Positions 7,418-15,400 of a DNA stretch of 53,292 nucleotides are shown in pieces. Position 1 is the stretch's first letter. The number at the start of each line of letters is the position of its first letter. The stretch spans positions 1 through 53,292 of the IMG/VR virus record IMGVR_UViG_3300045977_000215; one strand, written 5' to 3'. The notes under the pieces are model-generated. The model saw nothing but the letters and a program-made list of their open reading frames with translations, ran no database searches and was not told where the DNA came from. The position numbers were made by a program, and so were the translations under genes. Source of the stretch: a virus (Duplodnaviria > Caudoviricetes).

Positions 7418-7529
7418 CGATGTCCCCATACGGGATCACCCTTCCGCTCACGCATGCACTGACCCATTCGCCTACCCCTAGCATTCTGACGTAGTCTCCC
7501 GCCTACCACCTGTGGCATACGCGTAGAGC

Positions 7530-9104
7530 GTGGCCACCAGTCCGCGTCTGCCCACCATCGTGGAATTCGTGCGCACGATGCTCGGGCTGTCGCTCTCGCC
7601 GGCCCAGGAGACATTGCTGCGCGCGATCTACGGGCTGCCGCTGGAATCCGCGGAGCAGGAAGCGATCTTTCAGCAGTGCACGGGGCGGGGGACGTATACG
7701 CCCGGCAAGCCCTTTTCCGAGGTGACGGTCCTGGCGGGCCGGCGCAGTGGGAAGGATTCGCGGATTGCGGCGCCGATCGCGTGTTACGAGGCGATCTTCG
7801 GCGGGCACGAGCCGTATCTCGGGCGGGGGGAGGCGGGGGTGATTCCGCTGGTGGCCCAGGACGAGCGCGGGACGCGGATCGCCTACAAGCTGATCCACCG
7901 GTATCTCACGGACTCGCCGCTCTTGAGCCGGATGGTGAAGGACGTGCGGCAGCGCGAGATCGACCTCACGAACGGCCTGTCGGTCTATTGCTTCGCGTGC
8001 TCGGCGAAGTCGCTCCGGGGGTGGGGCTCGCCGGCCGCGGTCATGGACGAGGTCGCGTTCTTCCGGACCGAGGCGGGGACCGTGGTGGACGACGAAGTGC
8101 AGTCGTCGATCCGCGGGGCCGGGGTCGCGTTTCCCCAGCAGCGCCTGGTGAAGATCAGCACGCCGAACGGGAAGAGCGGTGTGCTGTGGGAGGACTTCAA
8201 GCGCTACTGGGCCCAGGACGCCGCGGATGTGCTGGTGTGGCACGCCCCGACGACCCTGATGAATCCGACCGTCACCGACGAGCGACTGGCGCGGGAATAC
8301 CGGCGCGACGCCAAGAAAGCGGGCCGGGAGTACGAGGCGCTCTTCGTCGACGACGTCGAGGCGTTTCTGACGCAAGCCCACATCGAGACGGCGATCGCGC
8401 ATGGCCGGTCCACGGACCTGGCGCCGATCGCGCCGCGGCCCTACTACGTGGCGGGGGTGGACCCGTCCGGCGGGGTGCGCGATGCGTTCGCGCTGTCGGT
8501 GTGCCACGTGGAGGACGGGACGCGGATCGTCCAGGACCTCGTGCGCGCGTGGAAACCCTCACGGACGGAGAAGGCCCGGCTGAGTGAAATCTGCGCGGAG
8601 ATCGCCGCGCTGATCCGGCCCTACGGGATCGCGTCGGTGACGGGTGACAAGTACGCCGCACAGTGGGTGAGCCAGGAATTCCAGCGTGTCGGGGTGTCCT
8701 ACACGCCCTACGACGGCGACAAGTCGAGCGCGTATCTGGCCTTCGAACCGTTCATGACCTCGGGTCGGGTCGAGGTGATCGACGACGCCGAGCAGGTCCG
8801 CGAGCTGACGTTGCTGGAAAAGCATCTCCGCGTGGGGGGGAAACCGCCGCGGATCGATCATCCGAAGGGCAGCCACGACGATCTGGCCAACACGCTGGCG
8901 CTCTGCGTCGCGACCCTGGCGCCCAATCTCTCCCCCGCGGTCGATGTCAGCGTGGCGCCGCCGACCGAGCTGGTGACGCGGCCGGGGATGCGCCTCGGCC
9001 AGGCGCCGGACCTGGAGGACCCCGACCGGACAGGCCGCACGCCGACGCGGTTCTGGTCCGAGCGCGGGCGCGCGCGGTTCTGGCGGCAGGAGGTGGCCGC
9101 GTGA
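7530..9104 (+). CDS. terL: Terminase large subunit
   Basis: Walker A AGRRSGKD, Walker B VMDEVAF, coupling motif ISTP, nuclease AGVDPSGG...HDDLAN. Confidence 0.93.
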   Translation: MATSPRLPTIVEFVRTMLGLSLSPAQETLLRAIYGLPLESAEQEAIFQQCTGRGTYTPGKPFSEVTVLAGRRSGKDSRIAAPIACYEAIFGGHEPYLGRGEAGVIPLVAQDERGTRIAYKLIHRYLTDSPLLSRMVKDVRQREIDLTNGLSVYCFACSAKSLRGWGSPAAVMDEVAFFRTEAGTVVDDEVQSSIRGAGVAFPQQRLVKISTPNGKSGVLWEDFKRYWAQDAADVLVWHAPTTLMNPTVTDERLAREYRRDAKKAGREYEALFVDDVEAFLTQAHIETAIAHGRSTDLAPIAPRPYYVAGVDPSGGVRDAFALSVCHVEDGTRIVQDLVRAWKPSRTEKARLSEICAEIAALIRPYGIASVTGDKYAAQWVSQEFQRVGVSYTPYDGDKSSAYLAFEPFMTSGRVEVIDDAEQVRELTLLEKHLRVGGKPPRIDHPKGSHDDLANTLALCVATLAPNLSPAVDVSVAPPTELVTRPGMRLGQAPDLEDPDRTGRTPTRFWSERGRARFWRQEVAA

Positions 9105-10762
9105 GTCTCCCGCGCTGGCTCGCCTGGCTGGCCCCCACGCCGGACCCGCGCGTGCTGGACCTCGAGGCGCGCCTGGCCAGCGTGGAGGCGCAGACGGAGA
9201 CCCGCGTGCGCGAGGCCTTCGCCATGGGCGCCCTCCGCGCCGAAGACCAGGCCGACCTGGCGCAGGGCTATCGCCGGCTCTCGGATGCGCAGGGCAAGAA
9301 TCCGTGGCGCCGCGATCTGCAGCCCCTGGCGCAGGACCAGATGCAGCGCCTGGTCTACTGGCTCTGGGAGTCCAATCCCCTCGCCAAGTGGCTCATCGAG
9401 ACGCCGGTGAATTTCATGCTCGGCGAGGGCGCCTCGGTCATCAGCCAGAACGATCAGGTGCGCGCGGTGATCGAGGCGTTCTGGGGCGACCCCGTCAACC
9501 AGCTCGACCGGCGGCTGCGGACCTGGGCGCGAGAACTCCTGCTCTACGGGGAACTGTGCCTGCCGGTGTCGGTGAATGCCATTGACGGGCATGTGCGGCT
9601 CGGCTACGTCGACCCGCTGGCGATCGACGAAGTGGTGACCGATCCCGATAACGCCTTGATCACGACGGCGGTCCGCATCAAGTCCTCGGTCACGGGCGGC
9701 CCGAAGCAGCTCCTGAAAGTGATCCGCGAGGACACGCGCCGCGCCTCCTCGACGCACGGTCTCCTGATGCCGAACGCGATGCTGGAACGCGATCTCGCCA
9801 CCGGCGAACCCTACGCGGGGGCGTGCTTTCTGTTCCAGATCAATCGCGTGTCGAGCGCGCGGCGCGGCCGGAGTGAATTGCTGCCGGACATCGACTGGCT
9901 CGATGGCTTCGACGCATTCCTCTTCGACTCGATGGACGCCGCCAGCCAGTTCAACACCTTTCTGTATGACGTGACGCTGGAGGGCATGAGCGAGGATCAA
10001 ATCCGCGCGTGGCTGGCCAACAACACGCGGATGAAGCGCGGGATGATCCGCGCCCACAACGAAAAGGTGAAGTGGGCCGAGGTGACGCCCGACCTCAAGG
10101 CCCAGGACAAGGACGCCTACGCGAAGCTCCTCCTGAGCTTCATCCTCGGTGGCCATTCGATCCCGCTGCACTGGTACGCCAGCGGCGAGGGGGTGTCGTT
10201 CGCGAGCGCCAAGGAGATGGGGCTCGTCCCGGTGAAGGCGTTCACCAGCCTCCAGCAGGAAGTCCGCCGACTCATCGCCGATCTGGTGCGCTTCGCGATT
10301 CATCAAGCCATCCGCGTCGGCGCGTTGCCGGAGACCGTGGTCGTCGGGCAGGTCGACGCGGCCGGATCCTCCACGGCGATCACGGCGCCGACGGACTGCG
10401 CCTTCACCGTCGTCCTGCCGGAACTCTCGATGCGCGACCAGGCGGCCATCGTCGCCGCGATCAACGGGTTGACGGCCGCGACCCAGCAGGTCGTGGCCCT
10501 CGGCTGGATGCGTCCGGAGACGGCGGCCCGCGTCCTCGCCAACATGTATTCGCAGCTCGGCATGGACATCAAGCCCGAGGAGGAGTACACGCCGGGCGCC
10601 GGGCCGCAGGGTGCCGCGCTCCAGGACTACCCCCAGCAGGACCTCCAGCGCCTCATGGCGCAACTGCAACGGGTCGGGCGCGGCGATGGCGAGAACCTTG
10701 GCCAGCCGAAGGACGATCAGACCGCGCGCCGCGCGAGTGTCGCCGCGGGGGGATCGGCATGA
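9101..10762 (+). CDS. Portal protein
   Basis: Position after TerL; ~553 aa; NPLAKWLIE...GELCL...LGYVDP...RGRSEL. Confidence 0.85.
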   Translation: MSLPRWLAWLAPTPDPRVLDLEARLASVEAQTETRVREAFAMGALRAEDQADLAQGYRRLSDAQGKNPWRRDLQPLAQDQMQRLVYWLWESNPLAKWLIETPVNFMLGEGASVISQNDQVRAVIEAFWGDPVNQLDRRLRTWARELLLYGELCLPVSVNAIDGHVRLGYVDPLAIDEVVTDPDNALITTAVRIKSSVTGGPKQLLKVIREDTRRASSTHGLLMPNAMLERDLATGEPYAGACFLFQINRVSSARRGRSELLPDIDWLDGFDAFLFDSMDAASQFNTFLYDVTLEGMSEDQIRAWLANNTRMKRGMIRAHNEKVKWAEVTPDLKAQDKDAYAKLLLSFILGGHSIPLHWYASGEGVSFASAKEMGLVPVKAFTSLQQEVRRLIADLVRFAIHQAIRVGALPETVVVGQVDAAGSSTAITAPTDCAFTVVLPELSMRDQAAIVAAINGLTAATQQVVALGWMRPETAARVLANMYSQLGMDIKPEEEYTPGAGPQGAALQDYPQQDLQRLMAQLQRVGRGDGENLGQPKDDQTARRASVAAGGSA

Positions 10763-12459
10763 TCGCCCGGGTCACGTTGCAGTCCACGCCGCAGGAACGA
10801 TTCATCGAGCAGATCGCCGCGATTCGCCGGCAGCTCGACGCCTTGCCCGCCGAGGCCGTGCGCGCGCTGACCGAGGAAGTCGACCGCGTGCGGCGCCAGG
10901 TGCTCGCCGAGATCGCCGCCGGACCGGAGGGATTCCCAGAGTACCGACTCCGCGACCTCGCCCGACGCCTCGCCGATGTGCTGGGCCAGTTCGCCGCGCG
11001 CTACGAGACGGTCCTCGGCCCGATCCAGGCGCAGATGTATACCGCGGGGGCGGAGCTCGCCGCGCGCCCCCTGGTGGACGCCGGGGTGACCTACGCCGTG
11101 CCGCAGATCACCCGGCGGCAGCTCGAGGTGCTGCAGGGCTACCAGGCCTCCCTGATCTCCGGCGTGGCCGAGGACACGGTCCGGGCCATCACGTCGACCC
11201 TTCGACTCGGCGCCCTCCGGGGCGAGAGCGTGCCCGAGATTCTCACCCGCGTGGCCGGCCGCCTGGACGATCCGGGCCCGTTCGGTACGCTGGCGACCCG
11301 CGCGGAAGCGATCACGCGGACGGAGCTCGGCCGTGCGCAGGCCATCGCGACCCAGGCCGGCCTCGACGAGACACGGCGCTTTGTCCCCGATCTGAAGAAA
11401 CAGTGGCAGCACTCTGGCAACCGCGGGCCGTACCGCCGGCTCGGGCATGTCGAGGCGCACGGGCAGACCCGGGACGTCGACGCGCCCTTTCGCGTCCGGC
11501 CGGCCCCGGGCCACCGCTACGAGAACCTCATGTTCCCGCGGGATGCCGCAGCCAGCCCGGAGAACTCCGTGTTTTGCTTTCTGCCGGGAACACTGGTGAG
11601 CGGCCGGTTTGTCGGCGCGCTAAAAGCCAGGTACGCGGGGCCGGCGCGGGAGATCAAGACCGCGCGGGGACAGCGGTTGCGCGTCACACCCAATCACCCC
11701 GTATTGACCTCGGACGGTTGGCTCCCTGCGGGCGAGATTCAGGAAGGCCAGGCACTGCTCGGCTATCGCGGGCATGAGAACGGGTCGTTTTTGGGGCTGG
11801 GGGATGTAGATGCCCAGGACCGACCAGCCAGCATCGAGGATGTATTCCAGGCGCTCTCGGTTCAGTCCGCCCCACTGCCCGCCCCCTACGCCATGCTGAA
11901 TCTCCATGGCGATCAAGTCTGGACATATGGCGATGTCCAGGTTACGGGGTCCTACCGGGAACTGTTGCTCTACCGCGACGCCCGCGCCGCGGAGGAGCGC
12001 AGCGAGTTCGTCCTCATGACGGAACCGTCGATGTTGTCCGGCGTACATGCTCTGAGCCCTCAACGTCTTGGTCGCCAGGCTATCTCGCTGGCCGGTTCTG
12101 GCCGCGTGGGCGTTGGCGTATTGACGTCGCGCCCTGTCGGGCTCGGCCCGAAGCCGGGCCCACACGAGATGTCCAGCGTCGGCACTTCCTCGGAGCTGGA
12201 CGCCGCGCTTGGTGAAGTGGCCCGTCAACGCGCAGCGGGATATCCCGGTGTCACGGCTCAGCTTGAGGAGCGATACCCCGGCCTGGTAGAGGCCGATCAG
12301 GTCGTCAAGGTTCGGGATATCGAGCATCGCGGCCATGTCTACGACCTCCAGTCGCCGATGGGGGTGCTCGTCGCTGACGGGATTATAGCCAGTAATTGCG
12401 GATGCATCTCCGTTCCCTGGCGCGAGGAATGGGCCGGCGACCTGGGACGCGCCGCGTGA
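10759..12459 (+). CDS. MuF/SPP1 gp7-like head morphogenesis protein, intein-containing
   Basis: RAEAITRTELGRA, KKQWQHSG..R..H...HGQ, LMFPRD; terminal NSVF/CGC motif split by a Hint intein. Confidence 0.9.
   Translation: MIARVTLQSTPQERFIEQIAAIRRQLDALPAEAVRALTEEVDRVRRQVLAEIAAGPEGFPEYRLRDLARRLADVLGQFAARYETVLGPIQAQMYTAGAELAARPLVDAGVTYAVPQITRRQLEVLQGYQASLISGVAEDTVRAITSTLRLGALRGESVPEILTRVAGRLDDPGPFGTLATRAEAITRTELGRAQAIATQAGLDETRRFVPDLKKQWQHSGNRGPYRRLGHVEAHGQTRDVDAPFRVRPAPGHRYENLMFPRDAAASPENSVFCFLPGTLVSGRFVGALKARYAGPAREIKTARGQRLRVTPNHPVLTSDGWLPAGEIQEGQALLGYRGHENGSFLGLGDVDAQDRPASIEDVFQALSVQSAPLPAPYAMLNLHGDQVWTYGDVQVTGSYRELLLYRDARAAEERSEFVLMTEPSMLSGVHALSPQRLGRQAISLAGSGRVGVGVLTSRPVGLGPKPGPHEMSSVGTSSELDAALGEVARQRAAGYPGVTAQLEERYPGLVEADQVVKVRDIEHRGHVYDLQSPMGVLVADGIIASNCGCISVPWREEWAGDLGRAA
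11620..12336 (-). CDS. Antisense intein-nested endonuclease: N-terminal HTH + DUF559/Vsr-like nuclease (238 aa)
   Basis: LIGLYQAGVSLLKLSRDTGISRCAL (HTH); EDELAALL...EQQFPVGPRNLDIAI...IAMEIQHG...RLEYILDAGWSVLGI; GGAGGT 7 nt before ATG. Confidence 0.8.
   Translation of the reverse strand: MAAMLDIPNLDDLIGLYQAGVSLLKLSRDTGISRCALTGHFTKRGVQLRGSADAGHLVWARLRAEPDRARRQYANAHAARTGQRDSLATKTLRAQSMYAGQHRRFRHEDELAALLRGAGVAVEQQFPVGPRNLDIAICPDLIAMEIQHGVGGGQWGGLNRERLEYILDAGWSVLGIYIPQPQKRPVLMPAIAEQCLAFLNLARREPTVRGQYGVIGCDAQPLSPRGLDLPRRPRVPGF
12337..12387 (-). promoter_or_regulatory. Antisense -10 box and Shine-Dalgarno for the nested endonuclease
   Basis: Minus strand reads TATAAT (12387-12382) ... GGAGGT (12349-12344) cgtagac ATG; no clear -35. 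Confidence 0.65.
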
Positions 12460-12640
12460 GCCCGTCCAGAACCCCCGAGCCGCGCCGGCCCGTGGCGGCG
12501 TCACCGCCGACGCCGGTGAGTCCCCCGGCGCCCCCGCCACGGGTCCGGCCGGCGCTGATCCCGAAACTGAGCGCCCTGCATCTGGCGGGATTACCGCATG
12601 ACGCCGAGCGGTGCCCGACGTGCCGCACCGAGGAGAAACC

Positions 12641-12850
12641 ATGATGGACGAGAAGACACCGACCCCGTCGCCGGAGGCGCCCATGTCCGAGGCGCTCGCG
12701 GACAAGCACTACGAGCAACGCCGGGCCGGCCTGCTCCCGCCCGATGCCGCCGCGGATCAGAAAGTCCTCGCCGCCCGGGACCGGAAGGCCAAGGACGCTG
12801 CGGCCGCGGCACTGGCCGAAGCGGCCCGTCGCGCAGCCCGGGGCCGGTAG
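12641..12850 (+). CDS. Small hypothetical protein
   Basis: GAGGAG RBS; helical Ala-rich sequence. Confidence 0.6.
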   Translation: MMDEKTPTPSPEAPMSEALADKHYEQRRAGLLPPDAAADQKVLAARDRKAKDAAAAALAEAARRAARGR

Positions 12851-12859
12851 GCCGCCGCG

Positions 12860-15379
12860 ATGATCCGGCAGGAGGGCGGGAAGTGGGTCCTGCGGTCGCG
12901 TGACGGCGACAAGGTGCTGGGCCGGTTCGACTCCGAAGACGACGCCACGCGCCACGAGGCACACGTCTCTCGGTTCTCGGAGGCGGTGGTGGCCGCCTGG
13001 CATGCGCGCCAGCCGGACTCGGTCGACGCCTGGCGCGTGAGCGAAGTCTTTGACGACGTCGCCGTGGTGTCAAAAGATCGGATGTTCCGCCGCGTGCCCT
13101 ACACGATCGAGGGCGACGCGGTGACGTTCGGATCGCCCGTCGAGATCAACGTCCACTTCGAGGAGATCGGCGAGTCGACCCCACTCGGCCGGCCGACGGA
13201 GCCCACCGGCTCGACCTGGGAGGTGCGCGTCCTGAAATTCGGTCGCTCGCTCAACGGGTGGCTCTGGACTCGGGAGGCCGGCGAGAAGCTCCTAGCGCAC
13301 CTGAGCTCGGCGCCGGTCGGGTGCTACGCCTACCAGGGCGTGACCGCGCACGCGGCCGAAGAGGCGGTGCTGTCGGCCAACGGGCCGGTAGTGCGCAACG
13401 TCGTCGGCGATATCCAGGCGCCCCGGCTCGAGGCGGACGGCGTCTATGCCCAGTTGCACATCCACGAGGACGCCGGCTGGCTGAAGACGAAGCTCCTCGG
13501 TCTGCAGGCTCGCGGCGTCGTCGATAAGGTGCTCGGGCTCTCGATCGATACCCTCGCCGGCTACGTCCCGGTGCAATTGCGCGAGGGCGCCACGAAGGCC
13601 ATCAAGGAGATCGGCCGGCTGATCTCGGTGGATATCGTCACCTCGCCGAGTGCGGATGGCCGGTTCGTGCGGGCTACGGCCGGACCCTTGCTCATGCCCC
13701 ATTCCACCACCACGCAGGAGGACCTCATGACCCGCGAGCAGATTCTCCAACTCATCCAGGCCAATCGGCCCCAGCTCCTCGCGGGCCGGGCGATCGAATC
13801 CATCACCGACGAAACCCTCCAGCTCTTGCTCGGCGACGCCATCAAGCTTGCCGCGCCAGCTCCTGCGCCGGCCCCGACGCCTCCGCCGCCCTACCAGGGC
13901 GGCGCGGGGACACCGCCCGCTCAAACGCCGCAGTGGGCGGCCGACATGGAACGCCGCTACGCCGTCAGCGTGACCCAGGCGCGCGTGGTCGAGGCCCTGG
14001 CTGGCGCCGTCACGCTGTCGGAGCTGGCGCGCGAGCGCGTGCGCAAGGCGTTCGTGGACAAGGTGGCGGACGCCGCGGAGATCGCCGCGCGCATCCAGGA
14101 AGAGCGGGAGTACCTCGCGGCGCTGTCGGGGTCAGGGGAGATTCGCGGCTTCGGCGCGACCCGGACGGAAGTGCTCGCGGCCCCGCTCGACAAGGTGCAG
14201 GCCGCGATGGACAAGATGTTCTTCCAGGACCTGGAGCCGGGGAGCCTCGACCTCGCGCGGTCCTTGGCGAATTCGCCCTTCACGCCGACCGCGCGCGCTC
14301 GGCTGCTGGAGTCCTACAAAGCCCGCGATGCCGCCATGAGTCGCGACCCTGGTCTGAAGTTCAAGGGGCTGCGCGATGCCTACGCGACCATCACCGGCGA
14401 CGAGGACATCACCGGGCATGTCGTGCGCGCCCGCGCCTCGGAAGCCATCCTCTCCACGACCTGGGCGGACATCCTCGGCAACACGCTCTATCGTCGCCTC
14501 TTGATGGATTACGCGCTCCCGCAGTACAACGAGCGCTCCATCTGCGACTTTGGCACGGCGCCGGACTTCCGGACCCGAGAAGTCGTGCATCTGAACTACT
14601 TCGCCGATATCTCCACGGTCGATCCGGAGTCTGCGGACTACACGGAGATCGCGGCGCCCGGGGACGACAAGGTCACCTATGCGGTGACCCAGCGCGGGAA
14701 CATCCTGACCATTTCGCGCAAGACGATCATCAACGACGATCTGAGCGCGGTCTCGCGGCTCGTCGGGCGCCTGGGTCGCTCCGCCCGCCGCACCCTGGCC
14801 AAGCACATCTGGGCCTTCTGGAACACCAATGCGGTGTTCGATGTCGATAGCGTGGCGTGGTTCAACGCGGCCCACGGCGCCAACACCTCCACGACGGTGC
14901 TCTCCGCGGATGCGACCGGCGCCGCCGCGGTCCGCGTCGGCATCACCGCCCTGATGAATATGGCCGAGCCGGGCTCGACCGAGAAACTTGGCATCCCGGA
15001 CCTCAATCAGCTCTGGCTCGATGTGCCGATCGCGCTCTGGACGGTGGCGGATGCGCTGAACCGCGCGCCGGAATTCGGCGCCGGCACCAAGAACCTCGTG
15101 TCGGGTCTCTTCGGCGCCAATAACGAGCGGGTGAACGCGAATCCGCTCCTGACGGATGCGACCGACTGGGGCGTCCACATGTCACCGGGCACCAGCGGGC
15201 GCGAGTCGCTGCGCGTGGACTTCCTGCAGGGCCGCGAAGAGCCTGAGTTCTTCCTGGCCGACCAGCCGACCGTGGGCCAAGCGTTCATCGCGGACAAGAT
15301 TCAATACAAGATTCGTCACGAGTACGGCGGCGACCTCATGGACTACCGCGGCGCCTTCAAAGCCATCGTGGCCGGCTAA
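12860..15379 (+). CDS. Fused prohead protease-scaffold-major capsid protein (Mu gpT-like capsid)
   Basis: N-terminal protease-like region (VGDI...LGLSID...SVDIVTSPSADGRF), Pro-rich linker, C-terminal FLQGREEPE...YKIRHEYGG..MDYRG. Confidence 0.85.
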   Translation: MIRQEGGKWVLRSRDGDKVLGRFDSEDDATRHEAHVSRFSEAVVAAWHARQPDSVDAWRVSEVFDDVAVVSKDRMFRRVPYTIEGDAVTFGSPVEINVHFEEIGESTPLGRPTEPTGSTWEVRVLKFGRSLNGWLWTREAGEKLLAHLSSAPVGCYAYQGVTAHAAEEAVLSANGPVVRNVVGDIQAPRLEADGVYAQLHIHEDAGWLKTKLLGLQARGVVDKVLGLSIDTLAGYVPVQLREGATKAIKEIGRLISVDIVTSPSADGRFVRATAGPLLMPHSTTTQEDLMTREQILQLIQANRPQLLAGRAIESITDETLQLLLGDAIKLAAPAPAPAPTPPPPYQGGAGTPPAQTPQWAADMERRYAVSVTQARVVEALAGAVTLSELARERVRKAFVDKVADAAEIAARIQEEREYLAALSGSGEIRGFGATRTEVLAAPLDKVQAAMDKMFFQDLEPGSLDLARSLANSPFTPTARARLLESYKARDAAMSRDPGLKFKGLRDAYATITGDEDITGHVVRARASEAILSTTWADILGNTLYRRLLMDYALPQYNERSICDFGTAPDFRTREVVHLNYFADISTVDPESADYTEIAAPGDDKVTYAVTQRGNILTISRKTIINDDLSAVSRLVGRLGRSARRTLAKHIWAFWNTNAVFDVDSVAWFNAAHGANTSTTVLSADATGAAAVRVGITALMNMAEPGSTEKLGIPDLNQLWLDVPIALWTVADALNRAPEFGAGTKNLVSGLFGANNERVNANPLLTDATDWGVHMSPGTSGRESLRVDFLQGREEPEFFLADQPTVGQAFIADKIQYKIRHEYGGDLMDYRGAFKAIVAG

Positions 15380-15400
15380 CGCGAGAGGAGCCACACCCCC

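Follow-up and report, generated by a model that had tools for sequence, protein, structure and literature searches.

Candidate expression signals for an antisense nuclease gene within the splicing blocks of a phage MuF intein

Can a mobile insert that has to splice exactly out of its host protein still bring with it the expression of a gene of its own? This is the question raised by virus record IMGVR_UViG_3300045977_000215 (Duplodnaviria; Caudoviricetes), a complete 53,292-bp record with terminal repeats that was matched in DNA runs of a soil metagenome, and the whole of which is the window analysed here. Its MuF-like head-morphogenesis gene (~10759-12459), which terminase- and portal-like open reading frames (ORFs) precede, is interrupted by a 274-aa intein, and on the opposite strand of that intein lies another ORF, apparently for a nuclease, that begins at intein splicing block F and ends over blocks A and B. 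We lean towards answering yes, and think it rather probable that positions 12334-12387 are the 5' control region of a homing-endonuclease-type gene opposite the intein of the MuF gene, working by the mechanism that follows.

In the mechanism we propose, host RNA polymerase would start near 12375 on the minus strand from a promoter that has only a -10 element (an extended -10 in relatives), a leader of ~38 nt would bear the Shine-Dalgarno (SD) sequence, and ribosomes would start at 12336. The nuclease would then cut intein-less MuF alleles at a conserved N|C(R/K/G)C site, and repair would copy the intein. Since the intein (11575-12396) encloses everything from the promoter through SD and ORF to the stop (12387-11620), the element would carry its whole expression cassette when moving.

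Codon choice in blocks F and G

Are the signals really there? The initial annotation had read the block-F codons for V-Y-D-L-Q as a strong SD on the minus strand with a 7-nt spacer, and the block-G codons ATT ATA as a perfect TATAAT on that strand, 45 nt from the ATG, and both readings hold to the letter: minus strand 12351-12334 is CTGGAGGTCGTAGACATG, that is, GGAGG (12349-12345), a T, the 7-nt spacer and the ATG, and minus strand 12387-12382 is TATAAT, the complement of att ata for the Ile-Ile of GIIASN. The motifs were also correctly placed, and only the start has to be moved: the ATG is 12336-12334, the complement of a His CAT codon, and 12337 is the first base of the Val codon. The frame from 12336 is open for 238 aa; translation from 12337 is out of frame.

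Within the window's own genome, it has to be said, neither motif is striking. The SD is not beyond chance there, with 65 copies of GGAGG on the minus strand and CTC making up 47.7% of Leu codons, and the mere presence of TATAAT is unremarkable: it occurs once in 53 kb, counting both strands, and shuffles commonly contain one (mean 1.25, at least one in 68/100), so that it is place and strand that matter. The Ile codons of the 15 stop-to-stop frames with a GC content at third positions (GC3) of at least 0.82 (9209 codons) are ATC 355 times, ATT 52 times (12.4%) and ATA 13 times (3.1%), which bears out the remark of the initial annotation that ATA is unusual in this genome; from the window's codon frequencies, and by our own arithmetic, the prior for Ile-Ile spelled ATT-ATA is ~0.004. 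The significance of the SD and TATAAT motifs comes from the relatives and not from the window alone.

These relatives form two samples. The first takes the best 80 of 345 IMG/VR relatives of the window's protein family, within 99 loci (some of which repeat a contig). Seven of the 99 were dropped, namely L007, L058 and L063 (cut at the locus end), L077 and L098 (flank too short), L012 (phage REQ3; no His-start matched by the pattern) and L011 (phage Vivi2; terminal RNC missed by the pattern, the sequence reading TTGCAAGGTGAACACATG), leaving 92 loci; clustered at 85% nucleotide identity over -100..+90, these make 72 clusters. Synonymous resampling kept every amino acid and used three nulls (extein, intein and pooled block F-G codon usage; 400 runs each). 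An SD core means GGAG, GAGG, AGGA or AAGG, 3-12 nt before the start, and complementarity was judged by the 16S 3'-end motif. The second sample is an IMG/VR pattern scan for any Ile-Ile hexamer, 31 nt and then TGGAGRTYRTANAYATG, which matched at least 118 stretches; its results below are for the 80 listed loci, which fall into 60 clusters with a GC content of 25-69%.

What, then, do the relatives say about the ribosome-binding site? Across the 72 clusters the start always lies opposite a His codon, either at block F or 1-6 codons before it, and is ATG in 64 and GTG in 8, CAT being used for 40.5% of the extein His codons of the same loci. Two solved inteins have Trp or Arg-Thr in place of this His, and because other residues serve there, we infer that the His before block F may simply reflect the start codon on the other strand. 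For the Leu of block F, 49 of 58 clusters use CTC, where 27-28% would be expected; the remaining nine are CTT (5, of which 4 read AAGG on the minus strand), CTG, TTG, TTA and CTA (1 each), and CTC accounts for 11 of 65 nearby Leu codons of that stretch. Where geometry is equal (49 clusters), the third base of this Leu codon is G on the minus strand in 40, and the adjoining Val, Gly and Ala codons show scattered bases at their four-fold sites. An SD core is present in 48/72 clusters versus 24%, 27% and 34% under the three nulls, and not one of 400 resamplings reaches the observed count. CTC is likewise found in 12 of the 14 clusters in which an in-frame stop and an absent start codon bar the GAG from antisense coding, and in two loci with a shifted start (L041 and L046) a new GGAG stands at the right distance, made from other codons. 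Synonymous conservation of this kind was the check that the initial annotation had proposed, and for the block-F CTC (49/58) it came out in favour.

For block G that check is favourable too, within limits: ATT-ATA is enriched among the relatives, though not conserved everywhere. A perfect TATAAT lies 12-80 nt upstream of the start in 19/72 clusters versus 3.5-5.8% under the nulls (0/400 resamplings reach it), and a match of at least 5/6 in 48/72 versus 28-42%. The 19 perfect sites stand 26-51 nt before the start, at no fewer than 8 different distances; the block-G Ile-Ile spells 8 of them, that of the window among these, and 6 of the 19 have TGn. In these 12-80 nt windows the density of TATAAT is 3.9/kb, versus 0.057/kb in the other 262 kb of the same strand (~68-fold), and the sense strand of the same windows has none. 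Between block F and the terminal Asn, Ile-Ile is spelled ATT-ATA in 12/26 cases versus 6/77 elsewhere in the frames (Fisher 4.6e-5), and ATC-ATC in 1/26 versus 31/77; order matters as well, with 12 ATT-ATA versus 3 ATA-ATT. In the second sample, 35 of 60 clusters have TATAAT, out of nine possible Ile-Ile spellings, with TGn directly before it in 27 of the 35; for the 53 clusters that are not within 85% of any first-sample locus, the counts are 31 and 24. The source of the TG is the Thr before Ile-Ile, which is ACA in 25 of 31 Thr codons. Matches to a -35 hexamer are mostly 3/6 or less, as expected for extended -10 promoters. One first-sample locus, L066, reads TTGACA, 16 nt, TATAAT (~33-61 nt upstream of the antisense start), then GGAGG and ATG, by its letters a full consensus promoter inside intein-coding sequence.

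Taken over the family, synonymous sites are thus biased such that the minus strand reads a putative SD, GGAG, 7-9 nt before the ATG and a putative -10, (TGn)TATAAT, 26-51 nt before it. The sites concerned are the Leu codon of block F, as CTC, and Ile-Ile codons between blocks F and G, as ATT-ATA, often with a Thr or Ala NCA before them. At the family level there is strong support for the idea that blocks F and G spell a candidate SD and -10; for the window phage itself the idea is no more than plausible.

The antisense gene and the intein opposite it

Is the antisense ORF a gene at all? To judge by its conservation, it is a real and conserved one. A tblastn search with it found 35 phage records (Pseudomonas, Gordonia, Rhodococcus, Cronobacter, Vibrio, Mycobacterium), and in all seven of those examined the matched stretch faces a coding sequence annotated as MuF-like, minor-capsid or capsid-protease, the ORF itself being annotated in none. 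An alignment-based scan gave 345 relatives in IMG/VR and 6 in GTDB genomes, and phmmer against 1.84 billion protein representatives gave 1346 clusters (50% identity) at E <= 1e-3 and 674 at <= 1e-10, many of them of equal length and with the same starting residue. The family also has members in phages of Pseudomonas, Vibrio, Cronobacter, Salmonella and E. coli, as well as in prophages. Two close pairs were informative, and their differences at positions 1/2/3 of the antisense codons number 21/10/55 and 37/10/68; in 99.96% of 2415 pairs, conservation is higher in the antisense than in the sense reading, in alignments built on the antisense proteins.

As to what the gene would encode, the family has a nuclease core, GPYNxDLA...VAVE...R..YIL..GW, after one or two helix-turn-helix (HTH) modules. 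N132, D134 and E145 are invariant in 57 family sequences and all present in the window protein. The family profile matches 3HRL (E 1.8e-6), I-Bth0305I (3R3P, E 0.0025) and Vsr (1CW0, E 0.11); PF18741 matches 39/57 members and DUF559 15/57. The window's nuclease protein alone was matched by no Pfam or NCBIfam model, and its ESM Atlas neighbours are viral DUF559/HTH clusters. The HTH and nuclease domains are recognised in the antisense reading only. Relatives vary in the number of N-terminal HTH modules, blocks of ~50 residues being present or absent; some phmmer-matched proteins have 330-420 aa with 3-4 matched stretches. Across this variation in modules, the opposing intein frame is open throughout. 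At the other extreme, Rhodococcus phage REQ3 (L012, 2465-3007) has a short antisense ORF of 181 aa from its ATG, with no HTH module, opposite an intein whose block F is WAFDST and lacks the usual His-Val-Tyr-Asp; this may be a decaying or divergent member. The minor-capsid intein of REQ3 is listed as the smallest class 3 intein by Gosselin et al. (bioRxiv 10.1101/2025.01.02.630785).

How do two proteins share the same bases? Antisense and intein codons line up so that position 2 faces position 2, and for this reason GC by codon position cannot tell the strands apart. The intein frame is open across the antisense ORF in all 99 loci, including those at 37-47% GC, where 8-22 stops would be expected. 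The antisense ORF avoids TTA, CTA and TCA, which would place stops in the intein frame: codon usage predicts 402 of them in the 72 clusters, and there are none.

We also considered whether the conserved GAG might be a Glu codon of a longer antisense protein, and rejected this: in 35/72 clusters an in-frame stop lies within 60 nt of the start, and 25/72 have no ATG, GTG or TTG between the nearest upstream in-frame stop and the start. Such stops have a counterpart in the intein. Between block F+4 and the terminal Asn, the Leu codons of the 72 cluster representatives are TTA in 16/65 and CTA in 14/65, and these read as in-frame TAA and TAG just upstream of the nuclease start on the minus strand; they could serve as a block on N-terminally extended products or could reflect the mere AT-richness of the promoter region.

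The features are collected in the table below. The MuF-like gene itself is recognised mainly through its relatives, in which it is annotated as MuF-like, minor capsid or head morphogenesis; the Pfam Phage_Mu_F match is weak (E 0.082), and a match to PHROG 15127, 'head protein' (8.6e-16), is on the intein part. The intein has the class 1 residues Cys1, terminal Asn and Cys+1, with Ser instead of His as penultimate residue. Its profile scores are below the curated cut-offs (PF14890, 33.9 bits versus 35.8; TIGR01445, 20.2 versus 24.5), and its block B aligns with the solved inteins of Pho RadA (E 2.1e-5) and PI-MtuI (E 0.008); opposite block B, the minus strand encodes the conserved nuclease C-terminal motif GQYGVI. 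The complement of the antisense stop is a Leu codon in the N-terminal splicing region of the intein, in phages Snoke and PK2 intein codon 2 (L099/L100, 1204-1206).

Table. Positions of the MuF-like gene, its intein and the antisense elements in the 53,292-bp window
Feature	Position	Strand	Remarks
MuF-like head-morphogenesis gene, precursor including intein	10759..12459	+	probable ATG at 10759; stop 12457-12459
Intein, 274 aa, CFLPG... to ...GIIASN	11575..12396	+	Cys1 at 11575; Asn274 at 12394-12396; Cys+1 at 12397
Antisense stop TAG	11620..11622	-	opposite intein codon 16 (Leu CTA, a spelling used for 2.7% of the window's Leu)
Antisense ORF, 238 aa + stop	11620..12336	-	N-terminal helix-turn-helix, then PD-(D/E)XK (Vsr/DUF559/MTES_1575-like) core with N132, D134, E145
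Intein block B T-P-N-H (TxxH; T38-P-N-H41)	11686..11697	+	aligned to VTPSHPVL of the Pho RadA intein
Antisense start ATG	12334..12336	-	complement of His CAT directly before block F
Start of intein block F, V-Y-D-L-Q (gtc tac gac ctc cag)	12337..12351	+	from sequence and translation
Putative Shine-Dalgarno GGAGG	12345..12349	-	complement of Leu CTC, first base of Gln CAG and last base of Asp GAC; 8 nt before ATG
Predicted transcription start	12373..12377	-	~7 nt after the -10, from sigma-70 geometry
Intein block G G-I-I-A-S-N, terminal Asn	12379..12396	+	from sequence and translation
-10-like hexamer TATAAT	12382..12387	-	complement of Ile-Ile ATT ATA; no TGn, no -35

The predicted start position rests on general sigma-70 promoter geometry. 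The predicted fold of the leader (12376-12310, minus strand) has -17.5 kcal/mol (z 0.29), with no sign of a hairpin that would sequester the ribosome-binding site. Words of this stretch occur in five metatranscriptome runs. The matching contigs of four of these were compared with the window, all of them lacking strand and ends; in one run the whole region is covered by 17-kb and 36-kb contigs, possibly DNA. In two low-depth runs, most perfect-match contigs on a 4.5-kb stretch are inside the antisense ORF (12039-12357; 11501-12121), and one stops at 12357, which falls between the SD and the predicted transcription start. This concentration is only a lead, the runs having been picked with words from the region and the contigs being unstranded.

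Around the element, the + strand carries 14 of the window's 15 long high-GC3 frames. The MuF ATG at 10759 has GGGGGGATCGGC just upstream, and a short + strand ORF after MuF (MMDEKTPTPS..., region 12630-12646) has GAGGAGAAACC just upstream; since these precede two + strand genes, the phage's own genes appear to use SD-type starts. A blastn search of 7500-15400 against phages, at a distant setting, gave no match, and a tRNA scan found no tRNA.

Could any of this be taken to the bench? A search with the intein protein found 83 phage records; 44 of them are from Salmonella phages, and another is that of E. coli phage Snoke, in which the intein is annotated. In Snoke and in PK2, a Salmonella phage, the sequence reads TGTGCTATAAT...GAGGTTATAAACATG and, through to the start codon, ...ATGTGCTATAAT...TTCGAGGTTATAAAC-ATG. 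The PK2 record annotates the antisense ORF as 'hypothetical protein', and the Snoke record has no antisense gene. The Jersey-like Salmonella records label the intein-bearing MuF gene as head morphogenesis, structural protein or 'NAD+--asparagine ADP-ribosyltransferase', and among those examined the antisense ORF is listed in PK2 only. Altogether 348 records match the Jersey-like MuF gene. In 58 the match covers at least 80% (a span of 1860 nt), and most of the other 290 have a two-piece match spanning 1044 nt, exactly 816 nt, the intein, shorter. Presence and absence of this sort is the sporadic pattern expected of a homing element; it is seen here in relatives, with cleavage and splicing predicted.

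Weighing the explanations

How far should one trust the view that blocks F and G carry the control region of the nuclease gene? Several observations weigh against it. There is no SD core in 24 of the 72 clusters, and in 7 the SD score is 0; a start that lies 2 codons further out leaves the block-F GGAG at a distance of 16-17 nt. Nor is the block-G hexamer by any means general, its two free positions being T17/G19/A8/C5 and A16/G18/T13/C2 in the fixed-length class of 49 clusters, and among six Jersey-like members examined, two read TATAAC (Ile to Val) and one reads CTCTAGG for TTCGAGG, with GAGG lost. The second sample was conditioned on TGGAG and a fixed spacing, and the first is limited to the 80 best of 345 hits. 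Because the clusters share descent, binomial P values make them look more independent than they are; the signal effects persist after merging at 50% (59 groups) or 40% (23 groups) protein identity. In the window, moreover, the promoter would be weak by E. coli rules, since TGn and -35 are both lacking: as the initial annotation had noticed, no consensus -35 is evident (2/6 at best, at 16-18 nt), and GGC (Ala GCC) takes the place of TGn before the hexamer. The window hexamer thus appears to be a weaker version of the family's usual TGnTATAAT. The original idea that synonymous choice places an SD and a -10 in blocks F and G is in this sense upheld by the relatives, and falls short for the window's own promoter, where -35 and TGn are missing.

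These last facts leave room for a reading in which the antisense gene, its start and its SD are functional, and the TATAAT of the window is not a working promoter, so that the gene either is silent or is transcribed from another minus-strand start, be it further upstream, in the C-extein or in downstream genes, or at a promoter of a phage- or host-specific type. Besides the missing -35 and TGn, it can be said for this that most listed relatives with TATAAT do have TGn (27/35) where the window does not, that one TATAAT per 53 kb is what shuffles give, and that a two-hexamer promoter scan found 0 sites in 10500-13500; the same scan, which requires a -35 and ignores extended -10 elements, found none at the Snoke site either. 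On the other hand, the prior of ~0.004 for ATT-ATA under the window's codon usage is low, the hexamer recurs at the same block-G position in 7 other first-sample clusters and in 35/60 listed second-sample clusters, and neither strand of the genome has a further TATAAT, all of which leads us to regard this reading as unlikely, if still deserving of a serious hearing. Much less probable, we think, is that the motifs are by-products of conserved VYDLQ and Ile-Ile residues, of AT-richer foreign DNA and of shared ancestry, with no selection for expression. It is true that Ile-Ile always reads DATDAT (4/6 positions fixed) and His always ATG or GTG, that the clusters are mutually related, and that GC3 is lower in the intein than in the exteins (0.72 versus 0.90 in the window; medians 0.64 versus 0.71 in the 72 cluster representatives), but amino-acid-keeping resampling never reaches the observed counts in 400 runs, even with pooled block F-G usage, and the Leu site is G in 40/49 clusters with its four-fold neighbours randomised. 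Nor would by-products be expected to put TATAAT at many positions on one strand only, or to draw the TGn from the third base of another codon (Thr ACA, 25/31, listed loci).

Might the codon bias instead serve the sense strand, with rare ATA and CTC slowing ribosomes near the C-terminus of the intein, or shaping the MuF mRNA? Rare codons (ATA, TTA, CTA) are indeed enriched between blocks F and G. CTC, however, is not rare in these loci (27-28% of Leu), the bias is for an ordered hexamer (ATT-ATA 12 versus ATA-ATT 3) and a preceding NCA, and the shifted-start loci L041 and L046 gain their GGAG at the right distance from other codons, so we give this idea a shade less credence again than the by-product one. 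Least credible of all is a reading in which the antisense ORF has no function and merely shadows an in-frame intein domain. A register-matched antisense frame is often open in GC-rich DNA, and GC by codon position is uninformative here; against this, the frame is open at 37-47% GC as well, despite the 8-22 stops expected, substitutions accumulate at antisense third positions, and HTH and nuclease domains appear in the antisense reading alone, the sense-frame middle of the intein (~residues 70-235) having no PDB match at E <= 0.1. The control-region reading therefore remains the one that we favour. A stronger form of it, in which the opposite strand has a part in choosing the very amino acids of the splicing motifs (His for the start, CTC-CAR for GGAG, Ile-Ile/NCA for TGnTATAAT), giving a self-contained two-strand cassette that has no non-coding base, we put forward only tentatively and with more doubt than belief.

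Known systems and significance

Is any of this known already? In part, yes. Anti-sense VSR-like homing endonucleases in actinophage minor-capsid inteins have been described by Gosselin, Arsenault and Gogarten (bioRxiv 10.1101/2025.01.02.630785), and the window element, with its predicted antisense Vsr-like nuclease in a MuF intein, appears to belong to this recently described architecture: the host protein, the opposite-strand nuclease and the Vsr/EDxHD-like assignment are the same, and Gordonia, Mycobacterium and Rhodococcus phages, as in their data, are among the relatives found here. Unlike their actinophages, the window is an uncultured soil virus, and the family is wider, with the further phage hosts named above and with prophages. 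The main text of that preprint does not contain 'promoter', 'ribosom' or 'start codon', and a literature search gave no paper on promoter or SD signals within intein splicing blocks, although the supplements of the preprint, which lay outside its reach, may hold detail.

Other systems resemble this one at single points. The fractured genes of Dassa et al. 2009 (PMC2677866) are likewise phage genes in which a Vsr-like nuclease goes with inteins and has control elements of its own; in the passages of that paper on these genes, the intein is split, the three coding regions are on the same strand and a non-coding spacer of 27-51 nt is present, whereas the window's intein is contiguous and its predicted nuclease antisense, with no non-coding DNA in the element. 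In the Synechocystis dnaX intein, an anti-sense LAGLIDADG endonuclease is on record (Gorbalenya 1998 and Gogarten 2002, as cited by 10.1101/2025.01.02.630785). A 2026 preprint (10.64898/2026.09.14.751524) calls the dnaX ORF '+2', on the same strand, and mentions putative SD motifs, its passage on this intein containing no promoter or synonymous-site constraint analysis. That nuclease ORF is nested in the intein and outside the intein frame, as here, though the nuclease family and the host gene differ. The catalytic cores of I-Bth0305I (EDxHD family, 3R3P), 3HRL and 1CW0 (DUF559/Vsr-fold) match our family profile, weakly for 3R3P and 1CW0 (E 0.0025 and 0.11); I-Bth0305I is described as intron-encoded, and the window family adds one or two N-terminal HTH modules. 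Lastly, the HNH endonuclease in the methylase gene of phage ShiLan (PMC11855218) is, like the ORF of the window, hidden in an insertion that leaves the host frame open; as its report has it, it shares the strand of its host gene, is read in frame 3 and starts at a GTG; no ribosome-binding site was detected, and the authors invoke leaderless translation.

What does the finding mean for the family? Descriptions of inteins with a nuclease on the opposite strand are very recent, and they left open how it is expressed. In more than 100 lineages, synonymous choice within the catalytic motifs of the intein appears to spell the start codon, the SD and the (extended) -10 for the other strand, each strand avoids codons that stop the other, and the constraints of a protein, an opposite-strand protein and putative regulatory signals are stacked on the same bases, with a clarity that few natural examples offer. 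This would explain how a splice-exact mobile insert can still bring expression of its own gene. Annotation has largely passed the gene by: it is missing from 7/7 records of the first search and from Snoke, and annotated in PK2 only, as a hypothetical protein. The family is large (1346 clusters at 50% identity), and among its E. coli and Salmonella phages there are alleles with and without the intein, which makes these predictions testable at the bench. If they are true, a promoter for the host polymerase would allow nuclease production to begin early, or to proceed from a prophage, independently of the late head operon, and the nuclease transcript would run antisense through the MuF and portal messages.

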